The position numbers were made by a program, and so were the translations under genes. From Eubacteriales bacterium (lineage in GTDB: Bacteria; Bacillota; Clostridia; Oscillospirales; CAG-272): a stretch of DNA of 64,000 nucleotides. The notes under the pieces were generated by a model. It did no database searches. It had not been told where the DNA came from and saw nothing but the letters and a program-made list of their open reading frames with translations. Shown here one piece after another: positions 20,974 through 34,275 of this stretch. Numbering within the stretch: position 1 is the stretch's first letter; each line of letters starts with the position of its first letter. The stretch lies in NCBI GenBank assembly GCA_045127235.1, contig JBGVPY010000079.1, positions 4,471 to 68,470 on the forward strand, read 5' to 3'.

Positions 20974-21177
20974 ATGTCTAAGAATAACATCTCAGTTCCA
21001 GAAGCTAAGGCAGCTCTTGAGCAATTCAAGATGCAGGCTGCAAGCGAAGTAGGTGTAAATCTTAACCAAAATGGCTACAATGGCGATTTAACAGCTAAGC
21101 AAGCTGGTTCTATCGGCGGTCAAATGGTTAAGAAGATGATTGAGTCTTACGAAAACTCTCTTAAGAATTCTAAATAA
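20974..21177 (+). CDS. Alpha/beta-type small acid-soluble spore protein (SASP)
   Basis: ALEQFKMQAASEVGV, GDLTAKQAGSIGGQMVKKMI. Confidence 0.93.
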   Translation: MSKNNISVPEAKAALEQFKMQAASEVGVNLNQNGYNGDLTAKQAGSIGGQMVKKMIESYENSLKNSK

Positions 21178-21256: not shown

Positions 21257-21405
21257 ATTTAAAATTTATTTATGCTCAAATTGTATCATGATTAAAAGTC
21301 TATAAGATTAGATACTAATGATATGTCGCTTTTTTGAGACATTTTTATCTTTACATTAAAAATTTTTTTGATATAATGATTATATCAAAAAAATTAGAGG
21401 TGTAT

Positions 21406-21474
21406 ATGATAATTGTTTTTGTTTTAGTCTTTGCAATTTTCTTTTTCTATAATATCAGTAAAAATAATAAATAA
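21406..21474 (+). CDS. Putative 22-aa hydrophobic peptide MIIVFVLVFAIFFFYNISKNNK (not in the ORF track)
   Basis: SD AGAGGTG just upstream of ATG; promoter-like TTTACA-16 nt-TATAAT (extended TG) at 21350-21377. Confidence 0.45.
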   Translation: MIIVFVLVFAIFFFYNISKNNK

Positions 21475-21560: not shown

Positions 21561-24500
21561 ATGGAGCTTATTGACAATAAGTCCAAATTATTGGGCGATG
21601 ATTTACAAAAAGAGATTAAGCAGGGTGCCAAACTTAAAATGGTAGCATCCTATTTTTCCATATACGCTTTTGAGGCATTAAAGGAAGAATTAACAAGTGT
21701 TGAAGAGCTTCAATTTATATTCCCGTCCCCAACATTTGTAAAACAGGGAATAAAGGATAACATTAAGAAAGAAACAAGAGAATACTACATACCAAAGCAT
21801 ATGAGAGAAACCTCTCTTTATGGTACTGAATTTGAAATTAGACTTCGTAATCAATTAACTCAAAAGGTTATAGCTCGTGAGTGTGCTGAATGGATAAAAG
21901 AAAAGGTTGCATTTAAGTCCAATATAACAACAAATGTCATGCCAAACTTTATTCATCTTGATAATAACGGAAATGAAATAGCATATACCGGTATAAACGG
22001 TTTTACTGCATCCGATTTAGGTTATGAGAAGAACAATATGATGTTCCAAGGCATAGCTAAGGTTGACGAAGGCTATGCAAAGTTTTTCTTTAACCAATTT
22101 AAGAATGTGTGGGATGATGATAGTAAGCTTGAAGATGTAACCCAAGCCATTGTTGACTATATTTCTTCTGCATACGAGGATAATGCACCGGAATTTATCT
22201 ATTTTGTAACCTTATATAACATTTTTAGTGAGTTCCTTGACGATATAATGTCTGAGGACTATATGCCAAATGAAGGGACAGGATATAAAAATTCAATTGT
22301 ATGGAATAAGCTATTTAATTTCCAACGAGATGGAGCAGTAGGCGTAATTCAAAAGCTTGAAAAATATAACGGTTGTATTCTCGCTGACTCTGTTGGTCTT
22401 GGTAAAACATTTACTGCACTTGCAGTTATGAAGTATTACGCTTCAAGAAATAAGAACATTCTTGTTTTGACACCAAAGAAACTTTCAAACAACTGGAATA
22501 AGTACAGAGATAACGTGAAAACAAATCTTTTCTATCAAGATAGAATACATTTCGACGTGCTTTATCATACCGATTTAGGAAGGAAAAAGGGCTATTCAAA
22601 CGGACACGACCTAAGAAACTTTAACTGGGACAATTATGACTTGATTGTTATTGATGAATCACATAATTTCCGTAACGATAAGAGTTTTAGAGATAGAGAA
22701 ACAAGATATCAATTCTTGCTTGAAAAGGTTTTAAAGAGTGGTGTTAGAACGAAGGTTCTTATGTTATCTGCTACACCTGTAAATAATAGATTTTCAGATC
22801 TTAAAAATCAGCTCCAGCTCGCTTATGGCGACAATTATGCTGAATTTAATGAGCGCCTTGATACTTCAAAGACAGTAGAAGTTATTTTGACAAATGCACA
22901 AAGAATCTTTAATGAGTGGACTAAGCTTCCAAAGGAAGAAAGAAAAGCAGCAGATTTAATGTCTAAGCTCGATATTGACTTTTCAATCTTGCTTGATAAC
23001 GTAACAATAGCACGAAGCAGAAAGCATATTACAAAGTATTATGATACATCTGAAATAGGCAAGTTTCCAACAAGACTAAAGCCTGTATCCTACTATTGCG
23101 ATATCGGTAAAAAAGAGGATGTCCTTGAGTATAACGATATTTTCAATACACTTATGGGACTAACTATGGGCGTTTATGCGCCTATGGACTATGTTTTACC
23201 AAGCAGAATGTCTAAATATGAAGAGTTGTACGATACAAAGGTAGGTAAATCAACACTTAAGCAGTTTAACCGTGAAAAAGCACTTCAACGCTTAATGACA
23301 ATTAACATATTGAAGCGTCTTGAATCTTGTGTTGATTCATTTAGAATTACTGTTCGTAAGCTTCTTGAAAGCAACCGTAAAACACTTGAATCAATCCTCG
23401 AGTATGAAAGAAACAAAGTTCTTCACTCGATGGAATTTAGTCAAATTGATGAAGATGATTTTGATAACGACGACTTTGATTTAACGAATGAAAGCACACT
23501 TGGTAAAGTCAAGATTGACTTTGCTGATATGGATCTGCTTTCTTGGAAGAGAGATTTAAAAAAGGATATAGAAACACTTGAAATACTTCACGATATTATG
23601 GCGTTTGTAACTCCTGATAAGGACTTAAAGCTGCAAAAGTTAATTGAAGTTATCGAAAATAAGATTAAAAATCCGATCAACCCGGGTAATAGAAAGGTTC
23701 TTGTTTTTTCTGCATTTGCTGATACAACTAACTACCTTTACGAGAATCTTTCAAAGTTCATGCTTAATAAGTATGGCATTTATTCTGCTAGAATTCAAGG
23801 CGCACAAAAGGGTAATGCTACAAATGTATCAGGTAGCAACGAAACTGATAGACTTTTAACTTTGTTCTCGCCGATTTCAAAAGAGAGAAACCAAACATAT
23901 GCAGAGGATAAAGAAATTGAAATAGACTTACTTATTGCAACAGACTGCGTATCAGAAGGTCAAAACTTGCAGGACTGCGATGTATGTATCAACTATGATA
24001 TTCACTGGAATCCAGTTCGTATTGTTCAACGTTTTGGTAGAATAGACCGTATCGGTAGTAAGAATGATTATGTTCAGCTAATTAACTTCTGGCCTAACGT
24101 ATCACTTGATGAATATATCAATCTTAATGCCAGGGTTGAAAGCAGAATGACTTTAGTTGACGCAACCGCAACAGGTGATGATAATATTATCGCAAGTGAG
24201 CAAGCCGACCTTGATTATAGAAAAGAACAGTTACAAAAACTTCAAGACGGTGATTTGCAGGACCTTGAAGATGTTGATGGCAGTATAACCATTACTGACT
24301 TGGGACTCAATGAGTTTAGAATGGATGTTGTTTCTTATATTAAGGAACACGGAGAGCCTAAAAACATTGCAAATGGCTTGTACGCAGTTGTATCCCATGA
24401 CGATGAAGCGGAAATACCAAAGGGCGTAATTTACGTTCTTAAAAACCGTAATCCTGATGTTAATATAGGAAAGCAAAATAGACTCCATCCATATTATTTG

Positions 24501-24818
24501 GTATATCTTGACGAAAACGGACAAGTTATAAATACCCATATGGAAGTTAAAAAAATACTTGATATTTTGCGTAAGACCTGTAAGCACCATAAAGAGCCTA
24601 TAGCAGATTTGTGCAGAGTCTTTAACAAAGAAACCAAAGACGGATACAAGATGGATAAGTACAGTAAATTGCTTGATAAAACAATAGAGTCAATTCTTGA
24701 TGTTAAGGAGCAAAACGACCTCGATTCACTTTTCAATCTTGGCTCAGATGTATTGTTTGGTAATAATATTAAGGGTATTGACGACTTTGAACTAATAACT
24801 TTTGTAGTAGTTAAGTAG
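21561..24818 (+). CDS. SNF2-type SF2 helicase/ATPase with degenerate PLD-like N-terminal domain
   Basis: ILADSVGLGKT, VIDESHNF, LSATP, ATDCVSEGQNLQD, WNPVRIVQRFGRIDRIG; N-terminal VASYFS..GINGFT resembles a PLD-like fold without HxK. Confidence 0.85.
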   Translation: MELIDNKSKLLGDDLQKEIKQGAKLKMVASYFSIYAFEALKEELTSVEELQFIFPSPTFVKQGIKDNIKKETREYYIPKHMRETSLYGTEFEIRLRNQLTQKVIARECAEWIKEKVAFKSNITTNVMPNFIHLDNNGNEIAYTGINGFTASDLGYEKNNMMFQGIAKVDEGYAKFFFNQFKNVWDDDSKLEDVTQAIVDYISSAYEDNAPEFIYFVTLYNIFSEFLDDIMSEDYMPNEGTGYKNSIVWNKLFNFQRDGAVGVIQKLEKYNGCILADSVGLGKTFTALAVMKYYASRNKNILVLTPKKLSNNWNKYRDNVKTNLFYQDRIHFDVLYHTDLGRKKGYSNGHDLRNFNWDNYDLIVIDESHNFRNDKSFRDRETRYQFLLEKVLKSGVRTKVLMLSATPVNNRFSDLKNQLQLAYGDNYAEFNERLDTSKTVEVILTNAQRIFNEWTKLPKEERKAADLMSKLDIDFSILLDNVTIARSRKHITKYYDTSEIGKFPTRLKPVSYYCDIGKKEDVLEYNDIFNTLMGLTMGVYAPMDYVLPSRMSKYEELYDTKVGKSTLKQFNREKALQRLMTINILKRLESCVDSFRITVRKLLESNRKTLESILEYERNKVLHSMEFSQIDEDDFDNDDFDLTNESTLGKVKIDFADMDLLSWKRDLKKDIETLEILHDIMAFVTPDKDLKLQKLIEVIENKIKNPINPGNRKVLVFSAFADTTNYLYENLSKFMLNKYGIYSARIQGAQKGNATNVSGSNETDRLLTLFSPISKERNQTYAEDKEIEIDLLIATDCVSEGQNLQDCDVCINYDIHWNPVRIVQRFGRIDRIGSKNDYVQLINFWPNVSLDEYINLNARVESRMTLVDATATGDDNIIASEQADLDYRKEQLQKLQDGDLQDLEDVDGSITITDLGLNEFRMDVVSYIKEHGEPKNIANGLYAVVSHDDEAEIPKGVIYVLKNRNPDVNIGKQNRLHPYYLVYLDENGQVINTHMEVKKILDILRKTCKHHKEPIADLCRVFNKETKDGYKMDKYSKLLDKTIESILDVKEQNDLDSLFNLGSDVLFGNNIKGIDDFELITFVVVK

Positions 24819-24839
24819 GGTATAGGATACAGGAGATAG
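24816..24839 (+). repeat. Degenerate 7-nt-periodic AGG-rich repeat (left arm)
   Basis: TAGGGTA TAGGATA CAGGAGA TAG; starts with the helicase stop codon and contains the SD of the next gene. Confidence 0.6.
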
Positions 24840-24841
24840 TG

Positions 24842-25195
24842 ATGGATTGTTATGAGGATTTGATAGTTTGGCAAAAATCAATGGATTTAGTGAAACAAAT
24901 TTATGATATTATTGATGCTTTACCAAATGAGGAAAAATACGCTTTAGCAGATCAAATGCGAAGAAGTGTAGTTTCAATTCCTTCTAATATAGCTGAAGGA
25001 TATGAAAGAGAATCCACAAAAGAATATATTCAATTTTTATCAATAGCAAATGGTTCAAAAGCAGAACTATTGACACAACTTGAAATTTGTAAAATGCTTG
25101 GATATATTGACGATATATCAAATGCAAAGTCGCTTTGCGACGAAGTTGGAAAGATGATCAGTTCCATTATCAAAAAATTAAAGCAGAAACTTTAG
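24842..25195 (+). CDS. Four-helix-bundle protein (23S rRNA intervening-sequence protein family)
   Basis: LIVWQKSMDL, LADQMRRSVVSIPSNIAEG, FLSIANGSKAEL, 117 aa; SD AGGAG at 24831-24835. Confidence 0.9.
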   Translation: MDCYEDLIVWQKSMDLVKQIYDIIDALPNEEKYALADQMRRSVVSIPSNIAEGYERESTKEYIQFLSIANGSKAELLTQLEICKMLGYIDDISNAKSLCDEVGKMISSIIKKLKQKL

Positions 25196-25276
25196 AAAGG
25201 AAAATGCAAGGCGAAAGACAGTTAGTAAAGAGAGGAAAAGAGGAGAAAATTTCATTAGTTTAGAGTGAAAAAACAC

Positions 25277-25325
25277 CACCTAACCCCTAACTCCTAACTC
25301 CTAACTCCTAACTCCTTGCCCCTAA
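25277..25325 (+). repeat. Tandem heptamer repeat, 7 units, consensus CTCCTAA (right arm)
   Basis: CACCTAA CCCCTAA CTCCTAA CTCCTAA CTCCTAA CTCCTTG CCCCTAA, then C and ATG. Confidence 0.95.
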
Positions 25326-25326
25326 C

Positions 25327-25959
25327 ATGATAAACTTTAGCACGAAAACAGAGGTTAATAAACCCTTTAAGTTAACAGACTTGTATAAACAAATGAATGC
25401 AACTAAAGAAGCAAAAAAAGAAGCCGCTTGTATTGATAAGGTTATACTTAAAAATGTTCTGTCTCCAAATACGCTTTATTGTGAACCGCAAAAAAGTGTA
25501 AAAGAGATTTATGTGTTTGAAGTAACTGTAAATATACAAACTGTACCTGGGCTTTTTATCAAAGAGCTTGATAATAGTATAAAGCTACATACTCTGTTTG
25601 TAATCAAGTATGAAAATCTTGAAATTATGATGCTTTCGTATAAAGCTGCAACATTTAAAGGTAAGTATTGGCAAACCAACTGGGAGCAAAGAATGAGCTA
25701 TGATGTTCCGCTTGTAAACAGTGTGCCGGAGCTATACAAATTCATCCTTTCAAAGTTTTTGAAATATCCACCATTTGAAAGCGAAGATGTAGAAGAGTAT
25801 GTTAAGAGAAATAACGCTTTAAATAAGCTTGATTTTCAAATATCAAAAACAGAGAGTGCAATAGCATACGAAACACAATCAAAGAAGCGATTTGAGTACA
25901 ATGCAAGGCTCAAACAGTATAAAGAAGAACGAGAAAATTTACTAAGAGAGGTAAAATAA
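25327..25959 (+). CDS. DUF4391-like protein
   Basis: Size (210 aa), KTEVNK start, KEIYVFEV, helical C-terminus (ETQSKKRFEYNARLKQYKEE) and position between SNF2 helicase and Type III mod. Confidence 0.65.
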   Translation: MINFSTKTEVNKPFKLTDLYKQMNATKEAKKEAACIDKVILKNVLSPNTLYCEPQKSVKEIYVFEVTVNIQTVPGLFIKELDNSIKLHTLFVIKYENLEIMMLSYKAATFKGKYWQTNWEQRMSYDVPLVNSVPELYKFILSKFLKYPPFESEDVEEYVKRNNALNKLDFQISKTESAIAYETQSKKRFEYNARLKQYKEERENLLREVK

Positions 25960-27846
25960 ATGGCTGACAAACTAGATATGAAATCTATGAATATAGCCGA
26001 GGATAATGTTAAAAAATTAGGAGCATTATTCCCAAATGTTGTTACCGAAGTTATGGATGAAAATGGCAGCTTTAAGTTTGCTGTAGATTTTGATGCTCTT
26101 AAGCAAGAGTTATCAAATAATTTAATAAACGAAAAGCAAGAAAGATATCAGATGACTTGGCCCGATAAAAGTCAAGCTAAAGTGCTTGCTAATTCACGTA
26201 TTACAGCTACATTGCGACCTGACGTTGAAAAAAGCGTGAATTTTGATACCACGAAGAACTTATATATTGAGGGGGACAACCTTGATGTGTTAAAGCTACT
26301 TCGTGAGACATATCTTAACAAAATTAAATTAATTTACATAGACCCGCCATACAATACCGGTAAGGATAGCTTTGTGTATGATGACGATTTTGCTATATCG
26401 GCGGACGATTATTCTAAAATAAGCGGAGAATATGACGAGATAGGCAACAGAATTGTTAAAAATCTTGACAGTAATGGCAGGTTCCATACAGATTGGCTCA
26501 ATATGATGTATCCCAGATTAAAAATTGCACGCGATTTGCTTACCGATGATGGTATGATTTTCATTAGCATTGATGACAATGAGTTTGATAATTTAAAGAA
26601 AATGTGTGATGAAATTTTTGGTGCGTCAAATTATGTTGCGATGTTTGTTTGGAAAAGTAAAAGTGGCGGTGCAAATGACAGTAATCTAGTTGCGGTCGAC
26701 CATGAATACATTTTGATGTATGCAAAAAATATTGAAAAAGCATCCACAAATTTAATTGCATATACCGAAGAATTAGAAACTTTATATACAGGCAAGGATG
26801 AACATTTTGAAGAAAGAGGTCCTTACCGACCTATGCTTCTACAACAAAAAGGTCTCAGCTTTTCTAAATCATTAACATATGAAATCGAAGCTCCAGATGG
26901 CAGTATTTTAGTACCGGAAAGCGGTGGCGCAATATGGAGATGGAGCAAGGAAAAGTTTATTGAAGCCAAAAAGAATGGATTTGTTGAGTTCAGAAAAGTT
27001 GGCGACATGTACAAGGTTTATACTAAACAGTATCTATACGTAGATTATGATGGTAATAAAATCGAACGCGGTAAGCTTATAAGAACCGTTATTGATGATA
27101 TTGACGGCAGACTTGGCACTAAATATTTACAAACTATCTTTGAAAATAAAGTGTTTACTAACTCAAAACCTGTTGAGCTTATAAAACAATTTATTTATGT
27201 TGCTACCAATAAGAATGACTATGTATTAGACTTTTTTAGTGGCTCTGCAACTACAGCGCATGCTGTTATGCAATTAAATGCAGAGGATAATGGTAACCGT
27301 AAATTTATTTTAATTCAAATACCTGAAAATTGTGATGTAAAATCTGAAGCTTATAAAGCAGGGTATAAGACTATTTGCGAAATAGGCGAGGAACGAATAC
27401 GTAGAACAGGCAAAAAGCTTGCAAAAGAAAATGATATTGATGTTGGATTCAGAGTATTAAAGCTTGATTCATCGAATATGAATGATGTTTATTATAATCC
27501 TACTGCGTTTAACCAAAGTATGCTTGATATGACTGTTGACAATGTAAAAGCAGACAGAACACCACTTGATTTGTTGTTCCAAGTTATGCTTGACTTAGGT
27601 GTAGAGCTTTCTGCCGATATAGTTGAAAAAACTGTAAACGGAAAGAAAATTTATGCAGTAAACGTCAACGACTTAATTGCTTGCTTTGATAATGATATCG
27701 ACAATGATGTTATTACAGCGATAGCAAAAGAAAATCCGCTATACGCAGTATTTAAAGATAATTCCTTCGCAACTGATAGTGCTGGTATAAACAACGAACA
27801 ATTATTTAAAACTTACTCGCCATCAACAGTAGTCAAGGTAATATAA
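25960..27846 (+). CDS. mod: Type III restriction-modification methyltransferase Mod, copy 1
   Basis: NLYIEGDNL, IYIDPPYNTG, FISIDDNE, central TRD, LDFFSGSATTAHAV. Confidence 0.93.
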   Translation: MADKLDMKSMNIAEDNVKKLGALFPNVVTEVMDENGSFKFAVDFDALKQELSNNLINEKQERYQMTWPDKSQAKVLANSRITATLRPDVEKSVNFDTTKNLYIEGDNLDVLKLLRETYLNKIKLIYIDPPYNTGKDSFVYDDDFAISADDYSKISGEYDEIGNRIVKNLDSNGRFHTDWLNMMYPRLKIARDLLTDDGMIFISIDDNEFDNLKKMCDEIFGASNYVAMFVWKSKSGGANDSNLVAVDHEYILMYAKNIEKASTNLIAYTEELETLYTGKDEHFEERGPYRPMLLQQKGLSFSKSLTYEIEAPDGSILVPESGGAIWRWSKEKFIEAKKNGFVEFRKVGDMYKVYTKQYLYVDYDGNKIERGKLIRTVIDDIDGRLGTKYLQTIFENKVFTNSKPVELIKQFIYVATNKNDYVLDFFSGSATTAHAVMQLNAEDNGNRKFILIQIPENCDVKSEAYKAGYKTICEIGEERIRRTGKKLAKENDIDVGFRVLKLDSSNMNDVYYNPTAFNQSMLDMTVDNVKADRTPLDLLFQVMLDLGVELSADIVEKTVNGKKIYAVNVNDLIACFDNDIDNDVITAIAKENPLYAVFKDNSFATDSAGINNEQLFKTYSPSTVVKVI

Positions 27847-27858
27847 GAAGGTGTTAAA

Positions 27859-29727
27859 ATGGCTGAAAAATTAGATATGAAATCTATGAATATAACTGAG
27901 GATAACGTTAAAAAGATTCAAGCATTGTTCCCAAATGTAGTAACTGAAATAATGGATGAAGATGGCAAATTTAAACTTGCCATTGATTTTGACGCACTCA
28001 AACAAGAGTTATCAAATGATTTAATAAGCGAAAAGCAAGAAAGATATCAAATGACTTGGCCTGACAAAAGCAAGGCTAAGCTTTTAGCCAACTCTCGTAT
28101 TTCAGCAACTTTACGCCCAGATAAAGAGAAGAGCGTAAACTTTGATACAACTAAAAATCTTTATATCGAAGGCGATAACCTTGATGTATTAAAGCTTCTC
28201 CGTGAAACATATCTTGGTAAAATCAAAATGATTTACATAGATCCGCCTTATAATACAGGCAATGACTTTGTTTATGAAGATGATTTTGCTATGTCAGTTG
28301 ATGAATATTCAGATATTAGTGGAGAATATGACGAGCAAGGCAATAGACTGGTAAAAAATCTTGATAGCAATGGTCGTTTTCATACTGATTGGTTAAATAT
28401 GATTTACCCAAGATTAAAGGTCGCAAGAGATTTGCTTGCGGAAGATGGTGTGATTTTTATCTCCATTGACGAAAATGAAATTGAAAACTTAAAGAAAATT
28501 GCATCGGAAGTTTTTGGTGAGCAAAATTTTGTTGGAGCAGTTATTTGGGAGAGAGCTTTTGCCCCCAAAAACGATGCGAAATATTTTTCTGATAGCCACG
28601 ACTATATAGTAGTATATGCTAAAACTTTGGAATCTTTCGAAATAGGTCTTTTACCCAGAACAGAGGAAGCTAATGCGAGATATAAAAATCCGGATAATGA
28701 TCCTCGCGGACCGTGGACTCCGGACAATATGACTGTAAAAACTTATAGTGCTTCGTATGACTACGAAATCGTTACTCCAAGCGGAACTGTCGTAAAACCA
28801 ACAGATGGAAGATGTTGGTTTACAAGCAAGGAAAGAATGCAGAAGCTCATAAGTGATGGAAGAGTGTGGTTTGGAGAAAGCGGAAGCAACATGCCACGCT
28901 TGAAAAGATATTTAGCAGATGTTCAACAAGGTATGACTGCAACAACTATATGGAAATACACCGATGTCGGTCATAATCAAGAAGGCAGACAGGAAGTAAA
29001 AAAGCTCTTTAGTGATAAGGGATACTTTGACGGTCCTAAGCCTTTACGTTTGCTGGGGAGAATTCTACAAATAGCAAACACAAACAAGGATTCAATTATT
29101 CTTGACTTTTTCTCCGGTTCCGCAACAACCGCACACGCAGTTATGCAATTGAATGCTGAAGATGATGGTAATCGTAAATTTATTATGGTTCAATTGCCTG
29201 AAAAGTGTGAGGAAAAATCTGAAGCATACAAAGCAGGTTATAAGACTATTTGCGATATAGGTGAGGAACGAATTAGAAGAGCTGGCAAGAAGATTATAGA
29301 AGAAACAGGCAAGGATATTGATATTGGATTTAGAGTATTAAAGCTTGATTCTTCAAATATGAATGATGTTTACTATAATCCAAATGCCTTTAACCAAAGT
29401 ATGCTTGATATGACTGTTGATAATGTAAAAGCAGACAGAACACCACTTGATTTGTTGTTCCAAGTTATGCTTGATTTAGGCGTTGAGCTTTCTGCTGATA
29501 TAGTTGAAAAGACAGTAAACGGAAAGAAAATCTATGCAGTTAATGGCAACGACTTAATTGCTTGCTTTGATAATGATATTGACAATGATGTTATAACATC
29601 AATAGCAACAGAAAAGCCACTATATGCAGTATTTAAGGATAAGTCCTTCTCATCCGACAGTGTCGGTATAAATAATGAACAATTGTTCAAAACTTACTCG
29701 CCATCAACAGTTGTAAAGGTAATATAG
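27859..29727 (+). CDS. mod: Type III restriction-modification methyltransferase Mod, copy 2 (different TRD)
   Basis: NLYIEGDNL, IYIDPPYNTG, FISIDENE, FDGPKP, LDFFSGSATTAHAV. Confidence 0.93.
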   Translation: MAEKLDMKSMNITEDNVKKIQALFPNVVTEIMDEDGKFKLAIDFDALKQELSNDLISEKQERYQMTWPDKSKAKLLANSRISATLRPDKEKSVNFDTTKNLYIEGDNLDVLKLLRETYLGKIKMIYIDPPYNTGNDFVYEDDFAMSVDEYSDISGEYDEQGNRLVKNLDSNGRFHTDWLNMIYPRLKVARDLLAEDGVIFISIDENEIENLKKIASEVFGEQNFVGAVIWERAFAPKNDAKYFSDSHDYIVVYAKTLESFEIGLLPRTEEANARYKNPDNDPRGPWTPDNMTVKTYSASYDYEIVTPSGTVVKPTDGRCWFTSKERMQKLISDGRVWFGESGSNMPRLKRYLADVQQGMTATTIWKYTDVGHNQEGRQEVKKLFSDKGYFDGPKPLRLLGRILQIANTNKDSIILDFFSGSATTAHAVMQLNAEDDGNRKFIMVQLPEKCEEKSEAYKAGYKTICDIGEERIRRAGKKIIEETGKDIDIGFRVLKLDSSNMNDVYYNPNAFNQSMLDMTVDNVKADRTPLDLLFQVMLDLGVELSADIVEKTVNGKKIYAVNGNDLIACFDNDIDNDVITSIATEKPLYAVFKDKSFSSDSVGINNEQLFKTYSPSTVVKVI

Positions 29728-29738
29728 GTTGGTAGATT

Positions 29739-32700
29739 ATGAAATTTAAATTTAAAATACAACAATATCAGTCAGATGCGGTAAATGCAATAGCTGATGT
29801 ATTCCAAGGACAACCATATAGTGAACATAATAAATACACTATTGATATGGGTGAAGTAACTAAGCCCTCTGCTCAAATTTCAATGTTTGATGATGGTGCA
29901 GGTAAGGCTGTCCTTAGTGATATTTATAATGATGATATTGGTTTTGCAAATAGCAGAATAGAGCTATCAAGAGATATGCTATTAAATAACATAAGAAATA
30001 TACAGTCCCTTTCCAACATCAATGAGTCAGCAACATTGTGCCACAGCCTTGGTGCAGTTGACCTTGACGTTGAAATGGAAACTGGTACGGGTAAAACTTA
30101 TGTTTACATAAAAACAATGTTTGAACTTAATAAGCGTTATGGCTTTAGTAAGTTCATTGTTGTTGTGCCATCAATAGCTATTCGTGAAGGTGTTAAGAAG
30201 TCCTTTGAAATGACACAAGAACACTTTATGGATACCTATGGTAAGAAGGCTCGTTTCTTTATATATAACTCAAAAAAGCTTGATGAAATAGAACAATTCT
30301 CAAGCTCAAGTGCAATAAATGTTATGATTATTAACATTCAGGCTTTTAGTTCTAAAGGTGCAGATGCTAAAAGAATTTATGAAGAGCTTGACGAATTCCA
30401 ATCAAGAAGACCTATTGACGTTATTGCAAAGAATAATCCAATCTTAATTCTTGATGAACCACAAAGAATGGGCGGCGAAGCAGCACAAGTGTCTTTAAAA
30501 AGATTTAATCCGCTTTTCTCAATCAACTTTTCAGCAACTCACAGAACACAACATAACTTAATTTATGTTTTAGACGCGTTAGATGCTTATAATAAGCGAC
30601 TTGTAAAAAAAATACAGGTAAAGGGCTTCACGATTAAAAATCTTCGTGGAACTAACGGATATTTGTATTTACAAGATATCCTTATTGCGCCAAATAAACC
30701 GCCAAGAGCAAAGATAGAGTTTGAAATTGCATTTAAGAGTGGTAAAGTAAACAGAGAAACCAGAATACTTGATGTTGCAGATAATCTTTATCAAGCTTCA
30801 AACGAAATGGAGCAGTATAAGGACGGCTATGTTATTAGTGAAATAAGTCCCGAAAGAGGAACTGTAACGTTCATTAATGGTGAAGTTATTGAACTTGGAA
30901 CTGCTTATGGTGACGTGTCCGAGATGGATATAAGAAGAGTACAAATTAGAGAAACAATTCGTTCTCACTTTGAGAAGGAAGAGGAAATGTATAATAAAGG
31001 AATTAAGGTATTGTCCTTGTTCTTTATTGACGAGGTTGCTAAATATAGACAATACGATGAAGATGGAAATGAAGTAAACGGTGTTTACGGCAAAATATTT
31101 GAAGAAGAATATATAAATGTTTTTAACGATTATATGACAATGCTCGATACACCATATACTGCGTTCCTTAAATCAACCGACCCATCTAAAGCTCACCAAG
31201 GCTATTTTTCAATAGATAAAAAAGGTCGTAAGGTTGACTCCACTACAAGTAAAAACAGCGATATTTCTGACGATGTATCAGCTTATGACTTGATTTTAAA
31301 GGATAAGGAAAGACTTTTGTCATTTGAAGAGCCAACAAGATTTATTTTCTCTCACTCTGCATTAAGAGAAGGTTGGGATAATCCTAATGTATTCCAAATT
31401 TGCACATTGAAGCATAGTGCTAACAATGTTCAGCGCCGACAGGAAGTAGGTCGTGGACTCAGACTTTGTGTTAATAGCACTGGTGAAAGAATGGATGCAA
31501 CAATTCCAAACTTTGATGTTCATTCTATAAACGTACTAACCGTTGTAGCAAATGACTCATATGAGGATTTCGTTAAGGGACTTCAAACTGAGCTTAAAGA
31601 AAATATGTACGAGCGTCCTAAGAGAGCAACAAAAGAATTCTTTGCTGGAAAGGTTGTTAAGATTAACGGTACTGAAACAACAATTACAACGCAGCAGGCA
31701 AGAAACATCTATGTTTATTTGATTACTAATCAATATCTTGATAATGATGATAAGCCAAATCAAGACTACAAAAATGCAGTAGCAGCAGGTACACTTGCAC
31801 CTTTACCGGAAGAATTGTTCCCACTTACCGAGGTTGTTCATCAACTTGTTCGTTCAACATATGAAAATGTTGAAATTCAAATTGAAAACGGTAATAAGGT
31901 TAAGATGCAGGATAACGCACTTAATGAAAATTTTAATAAGAAAGAGTTCCAAGCACTTTGGAATTTGATTAACCATAAGTACGCTTATACTGTTGAATTT
32001 GACTCCAAGGAGCTTATTGACAATTCAATTAAGGCAATTGATAAGGAGCTTTTTGTAACTCAATTAACTTATACAGTATCAACAGGTGAACAAAAATCAA
32101 ATATTGATGCCGAGCAAGTTAATAACTCTATGTCCTTTAATACCGCAAAGACAAAGACGGATGTTATAAGAACCGCAGCAAGTGATACAATTAAGTATGA
32201 TTTGCTTGGTAAAATCGTTGCTCAAACCTTGTTAACAAGGCAGACAGTAGCGACAATATTAAAGGGCATTAGTCCTATCAAATTCAATATGTATTCACAA
32301 AATCCAGAGGACTTTATAAATAAGGTATCAAAGATAATCAATGAGCAAAAGGCTGACATTATAGTTGACCATGTAACCTATAATATGATTGACGGTTCAT
32401 TTGATGCGAGTATTTTTACAGAGTCCAAAATGAGTATGGAATACAAGCTTGCATTCAAAGCAGAGAAGCATATTAAGGATTATGTTTTTGTTGATGGTAT
32501 AAATAAAATTGATTCAATAGAGCGTAACTTTGCAGCCGAGCTTGATAATGCAAGTGAAGTATGCGTATATGCTAAGCTTCCAAGAGGATTTTATATTCCT
32601 ACACCAGTAGGTAATTACAGTCCAGACTGGGCGATTGCCTTTAATGAAGGCACAGTAAAGCATATTTACTTTGTTGCTGAAACAAAGGGCAGCCTATCAA

Positions 32701-32837
32701 CCGCACAACTTAAAAAAGTTGAAGTTGCAAAAATAGAGTGTGCAAAAGCACTTTATAACAAAATGTCCAATAGCAAAGTCCGCTACGAGCATATAACCAA
32801 TTATACCGACTTACTTAATAATATGAATAAAATATAG
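29739..32837 (+). CDS. res: Type III restriction enzyme Res subunit
   Basis: VEMETGTGKT, ILDEPQ, LREGWDNPNVFQIC, QEVGRGLRL; C-terminal YSPDWAI..VAETKG PD-(D/E)xK nuclease. Confidence 0.93.
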   Translation: MKFKFKIQQYQSDAVNAIADVFQGQPYSEHNKYTIDMGEVTKPSAQISMFDDGAGKAVLSDIYNDDIGFANSRIELSRDMLLNNIRNIQSLSNINESATLCHSLGAVDLDVEMETGTGKTYVYIKTMFELNKRYGFSKFIVVVPSIAIREGVKKSFEMTQEHFMDTYGKKARFFIYNSKKLDEIEQFSSSSAINVMIINIQAFSSKGADAKRIYEELDEFQSRRPIDVIAKNNPILILDEPQRMGGEAAQVSLKRFNPLFSINFSATHRTQHNLIYVLDALDAYNKRLVKKIQVKGFTIKNLRGTNGYLYLQDILIAPNKPPRAKIEFEIAFKSGKVNRETRILDVADNLYQASNEMEQYKDGYVISEISPERGTVTFINGEVIELGTAYGDVSEMDIRRVQIRETIRSHFEKEEEMYNKGIKVLSLFFIDEVAKYRQYDEDGNEVNGVYGKIFEEEYINVFNDYMTMLDTPYTAFLKSTDPSKAHQGYFSIDKKGRKVDSTTSKNSDISDDVSAYDLILKDKERLLSFEEPTRFIFSHSALREGWDNPNVFQICTLKHSANNVQRRQEVGRGLRLCVNSTGERMDATIPNFDVHSINVLTVVANDSYEDFVKGLQTELKENMYERPKRATKEFFAGKVVKINGTETTITTQQARNIYVYLITNQYLDNDDKPNQDYKNAVAAGTLAPLPEELFPLTEVVHQLVRSTYENVEIQIENGNKVKMQDNALNENFNKKEFQALWNLINHKYAYTVEFDSKELIDNSIKAIDKELFVTQLTYTVSTGEQKSNIDAEQVNNSMSFNTAKTKTDVIRTAASDTIKYDLLGKIVAQTLLTRQTVATILKGISPIKFNMYSQNPEDFINKVSKIINEQKADIIVDHVTYNMIDGSFDASIFTESKMSMEYKLAFKAEKHIKDYVFVDGINKIDSIERNFAAELDNASEVCVYAKLPRGFYIPTPVGNYSPDWAIAFNEGTVKHIYFVAETKGSLSTAQLKKVEVAKIECAKALYNKMSNSKVRYEHITNYTDLLNNMNKI

Positions 32838-33189: not shown

Positions 33190-34275
33190 ATGGAAAGAGT
33201 TTATAATTTTTCAGCAGGTCCTTCAATGCTTCCTCTGCAAGTATTAGAGACGGCAGCAAGTGAAATGCTTAATTACAAGGGTAGCGGTATGTCTGTTATG
33301 GAAATGAGCCACCGTTCACCTGTTTATGATGAAATAATCAAGGAAGCAGAGGCTTTACTTCGTAAGCTTATGAACATTCCTGATAACTATAAGGTGCTTT
33401 TCTTACAGGGTGGTGCTTCAACTCAGTTTGCAGCTGTTCCACTTAATTTAATGAAAACTGGTAAGGCTGATTACATTGTTTCAGGTCAGTTCTCAGGTAA
33501 GGCACAAAAGGAAGCTATGAAATATGGAGAAGCTAAAATCGTAGCTTCAAGCAAGGAAGCTAACTTCTCATACGTTCCAAAGACAGACCGTTCATCATTT
33601 AGCCCAGATGCAGACTATGTTCACGTTTGCTTTAACAACACAATTTACGGAACAAAGTTCCCATATATTCCTGATACAGGCGATATTCCATTAGTTGCTG
33701 ATATGTCATCATGTATTATTAGTGAGCCTGTTGATGTATCTAAGTTTGGTGTTATCTATGCCGGCGCACAAAAGAATATGGCTCCTGCAGGTCTTACATT
33801 AGTAATTATTAGAGAAGATCTTATGGGTAATGCAAGAGAGAATACACCATCAATGCTTGATTACAAGCTTATGGCTGACAATGACTCTATGTACAATACA
33901 CCACCATGCTACTGCATTTACATTGCAAAGCTTGTATATGAATGGATTTTAGGTCTTGGCGGACTTGAAAAAATGAAGGAAATGAACGAAAAGAAGGCAA
34001 ATCTTCTTTACGATTATCTTGATAGCCAAGATTACTATGTTGCTCCTGTTGAAAAGGAAAGCCGTTCAATGATGAACGTAACTTTCGTTACAGGAGATGC
34101 TGATTTAGATAAGAAATTCGCTAAAGAGGCAGAGGCGCAAGGCCTTAAGAATCTTAAGGGACACCGCTCAGTTGGCGGTATGAGAGCTTCAATTTACAAT
34201 GCTATGCCATATGAGGGCGTAGAAAAGCTTGTTGAATTCATGAAAGAATTCGCAAAAAACAATCCAAAGGCGTAA
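33190..34275 (+). CDS. serC: Phosphoserine aminotransferase
   Basis: YNFSAGPS, MEMSHRS, LFLQGGAS, YAGAQKN, YNTPP, GHRSVGGMRASIYNA. Confidence 0.96.
   Translation: MERVYNFSAGPSMLPLQVLETAASEMLNYKGSGMSVMEMSHRSPVYDEIIKEAEALLRKLMNIPDNYKVLFLQGGASTQFAAVPLNLMKTGKADYIVSGQFSGKAQKEAMKYGEAKIVASSKEANFSYVPKTDRSSFSPDADYVHVCFNNTIYGTKFPYIPDTGDIPLVADMSSCIISEPVDVSKFGVIYAGAQKNMAPAGLTLVIIREDLMGNARENTPSMLDYKLMADNDSMYNTPPCYCIYIAKLVYEWILGLGGLEKMKEMNEKKANLLYDYLDSQDYYVAPVEKESRSMMNVTFVTGDADLDKKFAKEAEAQGLKNLKGHRSVGGMRASIYNAMPYEGVEKLVEFMKEFAKNNPKA

Follow-up and report, generated by a model that had tools for sequence, protein, structure and literature searches.

Why should an operon that encodes a Type III restriction-modification (R-M) system, a textbook two-subunit machine, also encode a SNF2-family ATPase and a protein of the DUF4391 family? 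The question is raised by a 64,000-nucleotide stretch of DNA from a Eubacteriales bacterium (hereafter the window; assembly GCA_045127235.1, contig JBGVPY010000079.1, positions 4,471 to 68,470 of the forward strand). At 21561–32837 the window carries six open reading frames (ORFs), all on the (+) strand: the gene of the SNF2 ATPase (hereafter the helicase), a gene for a four-helix-bundle protein, DUF4391, the two methyltransferase genes Mod1 and Mod2, and the restriction gene Res. The original prediction, made from the sequence of the window, had described six co-oriented genes with gaps of 0 nt between DUF4391 and Mod1, 12 nt between Mod1 and Mod2 and 11 nt between Mod2 and Res, and its coordinates proved exact. 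Helicase, DUF4391, Mod and Res are very strongly linked across genomes. On balance, the operon is probably a four-component derivative of Type III R-M, in which the SNF2 protein and DUF4391 would act as motor and adaptor for the restriction arm.

Gene content and linkage of the operon

By their sequences, Mod and Res are orthodox EcoP15I-type proteins. Mod1 (25960–27846, 628 aa) and its paralogue Mod2 (27859–29727, 622 aa) are predicted N6-adenine methyltransferases; Mod1 contains PF01555, both matched PADLOC MTase_III (9e-221 for Mod1 and 2e-243 for Mod2), and the motifs IDPPYNTG and FFSGSATT occur in both. Mod2 further matched the Mod of PDB entry 6k0w (5.9e-81) and EcoP15I Mod (4zcf_A, 1.4e-69). 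Res (29739–32837, 1032 aa) matched PADLOC REase_III at 2e-298 and combines an SF2 ATPase (ResIII) with a C-terminal PD-ExK endonuclease (RE_endonuc, PF19778). It aligned with EcoP15I Res (4zcf_C) over residues 69–1021 (E = 4e-70) and displays GTGKT, DEPQ and the PD...ETK motif of the endonuclease. Homology shows Mod to be a predicted adenine methylase that acts at a short, asymmetric site; on the same grounds, Res is its predicted ATP-dependent nuclease partner, as in EcoP15I.

The resemblance to classical Type III enzymes (EcoP15I/EcoP1I, PDB 4ZCF; LlaFI) is close at the level of these two proteins: Mod and Res are homologous over nearly their full length, mod precedes res, and the DPPY, FxGxG, SF2 ATPase and PD-ExK endonuclease motifs are shared. 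Classical systems, however, consist of Mod and Res only, whereas a SNF2 ATPase and DUF4391 are added here in every member sampled through DUF4391. The window copy differs further in having two Mods per Res and internal cargo slots within the operon. Mod and Res thus place the operon in the Type III family; its composition does not.

The original prediction had also proposed two methylation specificities, and the comparison of the two Mods supports this. The proteins are 67% identical overall; their ends are ~80–97% identical, whereas the centre (~residues 200–440), the location of the target-recognition domain, is only 12–53% identical. Unrelated recognition centres between such similar ends fit two specificities, and in the window copy the second Mod, with its different target-recognition region, would share the single Res and confer a second specificity on it. 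A second Mod was found in only one (L070) of the other 40 loci. A search of the mod genes for phase-variable simple repeats found none.

Linkage was assessed in two sets of loci and one survey of genomes. The first set comprises 20 loci retrieved by DUF4391 alignment from gut Clostridia and other genomes; the second comprises 20 DUF4391 loci with their flanks, drawn evenly across Bacillota, giving 40 loci combined; the survey covers 401 evenly drawn genomes of Bacillota species. All 20 loci of the first set were consistent with the order helicase–DUF4391–Mod–Res on one strand, the genes being present wherever the contig extends. Helicase, Mod and Res stood in the same order and strand around DUF4391 in all 20 phylum-wide loci. 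DUF4391 was detected in 35 of the 401 genomes and a helicase homologue in 34, and both were present in 32; the five discordant genomes held fragments or contig-end matches only. The co-occurrence of helicase, DUF4391, Mod and Res, which the original prediction had named as its own test, was thus upheld.

The spacing of the genes is similarly conserved. From the helicase stop to the DUF4391 start, the distance lay between −17 and +19 nt in 32 of 35 loci, which identifies helicase and DUF4391 as a pair coupled in translation. Divergence, too, runs in step across the four proteins, as exemplified by locus L020 (identities of 57% for the helicase, 37% for DUF4391, 52% for Mod and 55% for Res). Since Res homologues were found in 59 of the 401 Bacillota genomes, many Mod–Res pairs exist without the SNF2 gene and DUF4391. 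The reverse was never seen, which indicates that the pair depends on Mod–Res. Collectively, comparative genomics shows the SNF2 gene and DUF4391 to be an obligate pair, seen only beside Mod–Res, always upstream and on the same strand.

The same operon is carried by Escherichia coli IncFIB plasmids (~110 kb), where its products are annotated as 'SNF2-related protein', 'DUF4391 domain-containing protein', 'site-specific DNA-methyltransferase' and 'DEAD/DEAH box helicase family protein'. One of these copies, L094 (NZ_CP101235.1, 3254–12300), is a complete SNF2–DUF4391–methylase–Res operon on a 115-kb non-mobilizable IncFIB plasmid and adjoins genes for a LAGLIDADG homing endonuclease and a 5'–3' exonuclease. 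Locus L013 (genome G420) bears the label Alistipes onderdonkii, which is probably wrong for this metagenome bin: it falls in a phylum whose genomes measure 0.7–3.2 Mb, and several of these have an in-frame TGA within the match. An occurrence of the operon in Bacteroidota, as the label would suggest, is therefore not established. A DUF4391 profile search of 1.84 billion representative proteins returned 3,667 clusters at 50% identity (E up to 0.001), a family to which no function is assigned. The best 150 of these clusters are nearly all standalone proteins of 200–230 residues. The phage collection yielded a DUF4391 homologue in no more than two metagenomic records, both unannotated.

The SNF2 protein and DUF4391

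The helicase (21561–24818, 1085 aa; SNF2-rel_dom, Helicase_C and ResIII) matched the PADLOC model PDLC01075 'HKD+Snf2' over its full length (2.7e-114); the PADLOC name C3a139 goes back to a screen that sought accessory genes of Type III CRISPR systems. The protein can be divided into a degenerate PLD-like N-terminus (~1–200), a SNF2 core (~250–850) and a conserved C-terminal α+β region (~880–1085). Among 22–36 helicase homologues, GLGKT, DESHNFRN, SATP and QRFGRIDR are invariant. The first 200 residues are poorly conserved across the homologues, and no H, K or D within them is conserved in the same sequences. Should this N-terminal domain derive from PLD, as implied by the PADLOC label, the lack of a conserved HKD motif indicates that it is not catalytic.

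A PLDc_2 match was detected in one of six helicase homologues, below the threshold (E 0.005; 17 bits versus 27). With no conserved residues and this lone match, a catalytic PLD/HKD domain in the helicase was ruled out. The earlier description of the protein as 'SNF2/PLD-like' consequently holds for its SNF2 part, and the PLD-like part is weak. A fold search with the structure model of the helicase gave RapA and chromatin-remodelling SNF2 ATPases as top matches; the SNF2 core dominated the search, which left the N-terminal domain unresolved.

The DUF4391 protein (25327–25959, 210 aa) matched PF14335 with 68.6 bits against a cut-off of 29.9 (1e-18), covering profile positions 5–231 of 232. Its AlphaFold2 model (pLDDT 91.6, pTM 0.82) consists of an α/β domain (residues 1–145) followed by a C-terminal helical hairpin (155–206). 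Searches of PDB and BFVD with the model identified no fold relatives (best E 0.03–0.1, TM below 0.3), and the DUF4391 profile matched no solved chain among PDB sequences. The family has zero invariant residues, and its best-conserved stretch lies in the hairpin (E182, Q184, N192), which points to a binding protein rather than an enzyme. PADLOC contains no model for DUF4391. Homology to DUF3780 was considered and rejected (hhalign probability 0.8%). In one member of the representative library, P0126 (380 aa), DUF4391 is joined at its C-terminal end to an ASCH domain (30 bits versus a cut-off of 21.2), a rare fusion. ASCH has a PUA-like fold linked to the reading of nucleic acids or modified bases.

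Possible roles of the SNF2–DUF4391 pair

An intact motor, a dead nuclease-like domain and a non-enzymatic, tightly coupled DUF4391 make a translocase with an adaptor the most economical model. The SNF2 protein would be a true double-stranded DNA translocase whose nuclease-like N-terminal domain has lost catalysis, and DUF4391 would be a non-enzymatic adaptor that ties this motor to the Mod–Res complex. The pair would aid restriction rather than methylation, for example by gathering Mod–Res complexes or by clearing the DNA between sites. It could also assist by actively drawing sites together, by removing roadblocks or as a collision partner.

Relatives that have lost the pair are consistent with a role in restriction. 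Loci L074 and L076 were left out of this comparison, as contig ends cut them, and the six informative helicase-less loci form a small sample. Two of them (L083 and L084) have an intact Mod and a Res without its endonuclease domain. Two others have a truncated Mod: L072 combines an intact Res with a Mod fragment of only 183 aa, and the Mod of L073 lacks its N-terminal third. The remaining two are intact. That loss of the pair often accompanies decay of restriction suggests that the pair serves restriction, although the two intact loci show that the dependence is not absolute.

A separate association was found in a distant Type III clade, whose Res is ~35% identical. Here a different SNF2 gene lies directly upstream of Mod (L078, 10039–12954) or one gene further upstream (L079, 5346–8285). 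The encoded proteins have 971–979 aa and no PLD-like N-terminus, and no DUF4391 follows them. These loci suggest that SNF2 motors joined Type III systems more than once.

Several observations weigh against a motor and adaptor for restriction. Loci L075 and L085 carry apparently intact Mod and Res without helicase or DUF4391, so the pair is not strictly required. On the Res tree, loci with and without the helicase are interspersed, which implies that the pair was gained or lost ~6–8 times, and the pair label shows no significant clustering (50–52 of 500 shuffles do as well). The helicase model is of moderate confidence (pLDDT 67.6), and the single metatranscriptome yielded a few 151-nt contigs matching the locus at 95–98% identity, which is negligible as RNA evidence. 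Moreover, every step in how the SNF2 protein and DUF4391 would act is inferred.

Comparison with other defence systems helps to place the operon. The original prediction had named class 1 DISARM (DrmD, DrmMI, DrmA/DrmB and the PLD protein DrmC) as another defence system with SNF2 ATPases, and the likeness is one of analogy only, in domain inventory: in both, a SNF2 ATPase is combined with an adenine methylase, with a second SF2 helicase and with a domain of PLD type. Among NCBIfam models, DrmD (NF038317) matched the helicase best; the match, however, reached only 139.8 bits against a cut-off of 610 and covered residues 358–847 only, and no DrmA/DrmB (DUF1998) domains were found in the six ORFs. 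In addition, the PLD-like region is here fused to the helicase and non-catalytic, and the nuclease is a Type III Res. Type-2 BREX-related systems combine an HKD-Swi2/Snf2 helicase, DUF3780, an N6-methylase and a DUF499 ATPase (PMC12839542). They resemble the operon in a helicase that joins an HKD-type N-terminus to a Swi2/Snf2 core and has RapA-like fold matches, and in the small standalone α+β partner, sometimes ASCH-fused, that accompanies an adenine methylase. Unlike them, the window locus has neither a DUF499/BrxC-like ATPase nor DUF3780, its HKD residues are unconserved and its nuclease comes from a separate Type III Res. Locus L072 (G080:C1:1710000–1729900), a decayed Type III locus, lies ~13 kb from a gene for DUF3780, the marker of Type-2 BREX-related systems, in what looks like a defence island.

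The PADLOC check suggested with the original prediction matched the parts singly, and no defence library names the whole system. Open-access papers and preprints contained no description that we could find of the four-gene operon. In the open-access literature, DUF4391 appears as an entry in an enrichment table and elsewhere as an apparent slip for DUF7941.

Could the locus instead be two independent neighbours in a defence island, a SNF2–DUF4391 unit and a plain Type III R-M system? Defence genes do cluster in islands, and Mod–Res pairs do occur without the helicase and DUF4391. Yet all 40 loci are consistent in order and strand, the helicase–DUF4391 pair never occurs without Mod–Res and the four proteins diverge in step, as in L020; we regard two separate systems as extremely improbable. 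Within a single system, the pair might load methylation rather than serve restriction, so that the SNF2 protein and DUF4391 would be needed for Mod to methylate host DNA. A precedent is MANTIS/Gao_RL, a methylation-based system in which loading of the methyltransferase requires an ATPase as well as a small co-regulator (10.64898/2026.09.23.753747), and the position of DUF4391 directly upstream of Mod, with a 0-nt gap in the window, would suit such a role. The Mods found intact without the pair (L075, L083, L084 and L085) nevertheless argue against it. Mod is an orthodox Type III Mod, of a class that methylates on its own. Additional genes carried within the operon (cargo) are common between DUF4391 and Mod and rare between helicase and DUF4391. 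The evidence thus points away from MANTIS-like control of methylation, and a loader of this kind is very unlikely.

A third possibility, the 'anti-anti-restriction guard' of the original prediction, is that the pair stands guard, sensing phage anti-restriction proteins or stalled Mod–Res complexes and triggering an alternative response. The helicase's N-terminus evolves rapidly, as is frequent among sensor domains, the operon draws cargo of the abortive-infection type, and the ASCH fusion of one DUF4391 member could represent a reader of nucleic acids or modified bases. We judge this unlikely, given that, the ATPase apart, both proteins lack conserved effector domains and conserved catalytic residues, and that only one of the 3,667 clusters carries the ASCH fusion. 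The 'backup effector' of the original prediction is likewise unlikely: conserved catalytic residues are missing from both the PLD-like region and DUF4391.

We therefore favour a motor and adaptor for the restriction arm, and a bolder version of it, to which we give little credence, concerns the geometry of cleavage. Type III enzymes hemimethylate an asymmetric site, and their ATP-dependent cleavage requires two inversely oriented unmethylated sites; classically, phages escape by having all sites in one orientation. The SNF2 protein and DUF4391 might convert a Type III enzyme that slides passively into one that is driven actively, and free cleavage from the need for two head-to-head sites. DUF4391 would dock the translocase on Mod–Res, and the motor would reel in DNA or hit a site-bound complex. 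If so, the driven enzyme would defeat phage escape through single-orientation sites, and it would explain both the wide spread of this branch and its role as a platform for swappable defence cargo.

In more general terms, if ~9% of Bacillota species (35/401) and E. coli plasmids have an obligate second motor and adaptor, many 'plain' Type III systems would be four-part machines. The E. coli plasmid copy makes the operon tractable for experiments.

Cargo, strain variation and flanks

Across the 40 loci, the DUF4391/Mod and Mod/Res junctions often hold one to three extra co-oriented genes from ~38 unrelated families, which marks the operon as a platform with two cargo slots. The cargo includes DUF1883-TIR, TIR/SEFIR, RhuM, YhcG/DUF1016 nuclease, SIR2 with HerA, AAA_13 and AbiTii, as well as DUF2971, DUF6161 and DUF4365. 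Defence genes (TIR, SIR2-HerA, AbiTii, RhuM, YhcG and others) are swapped in the two hot slots, in which even near-identical strains can differ, and this exchange makes the operon a useful anchor for finding new defence genes.

The four-helix-bundle gene (24839–25195, (+) strand, 118 aa) sits at the helicase/DUF4391 junction. It matched PF05635 (137 bits versus 33.8) and TIGR02436 (137.1 versus 24), the models of the four-helix-bundle or 23S rRNA intervening-sequence protein, and lies in a cassette (24820–25335, (+) strand) outside the conserved system. Within the cassette the gene is flanked by AGG-rich (TTAGGAG-type) units on the left and, on the right, by an array of 5.4 copies of the heptamer CCTAACT (25279–25316); the flanks pair in the predicted RNA fold (z = −2.6). 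A similar cassette occupies the same junction in two distant loci (L004, 9527–10000; L016, 355–809), again between units of the TTAGGAG type and units of the CCCTAA type. The heptamer array reached depths in the thousands in three of four metagenome runs, with many different flanks, and hence represents a common repeat in these gut communities.

Contigs of four other gut metagenomes (three labelled bovine) were aligned to the window. They derive from near-identical strains; in the helicase region, the two longest contigs showed 15–21 differences over 2.4–3.8 kb. Two of the runs gave contigs, 4.7 kb and 11.6 kb long, that lack the cassette and join 24819 to 25336 via 16 nt (AGGAAGAATGTTTCAG). 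In these cassette-free strains, 8 nt separate the helicase stop from the start of DUF4391, whose N-terminus is MFQFS, as is typical of the family. The absence of the cassette from near-identical strains shows that 24820–25335 is a recent insertion, which in the window copy supplied a new start codon for DUF4391 (N-terminus MINFS). The sixth gene, which the original prediction had counted among its six co-oriented genes, is thus no part of the system but a mobile cassette that entered recently between the SNF2 gene and DUF4391.

The same comparison revealed variation at the Mod/Res slot. In the near-identical strain of run X5, the Mod2 stop and the Res start are separated by an insertion of 737 nt (window 29720–29739), and a contig of run X3 breaks off at the same point. 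The X5 insertion is probably a cargo gene. Mod1 and Mod2 are both kept in the near-identical strains compared.

The locus is flanked by a SASP gene (20974–21177) and a class-V aminotransferase (serC-like) gene (33190–34275). The helicase was absent from 12 genus-level and 8 order-level genomes of relatives (0/20), synteny with the genus relatives starts at ~32941, ~100 nt past the Res stop, and upstream of serC each of these relatives differs, with purL-type genes, GH43 or LRR. Taken together, these observations indicate that the locus was acquired. The G+C content of the locus is like that of its surroundings. The original prediction had placed the operon as an insertion between SASP and serC; the helicase-free relatives and the synteny edge agree with this indirectly, but no clean empty SASP–serC site was found among the genus relatives.

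A promoter-like element ahead of the genes, likewise predicted, was located at 21350–21377 on the (+) strand, ~185 nt before the helicase start codon. Its sequence, TTTACA-16-TATAAT with an upstream TG, matches the consensus at 11 of 12 positions and is the best-scoring site in the region, an AT-rich one in which consensus matches are hardly enriched (66 found versus 53.7 in shuffles). Between this site and the helicase start lies a 22-codon hydrophobic ORF (21406–21474; MIIVFVLVFAIFFFYNISKNNK), preceded by the ribosome-binding-like site AGAGGTG.

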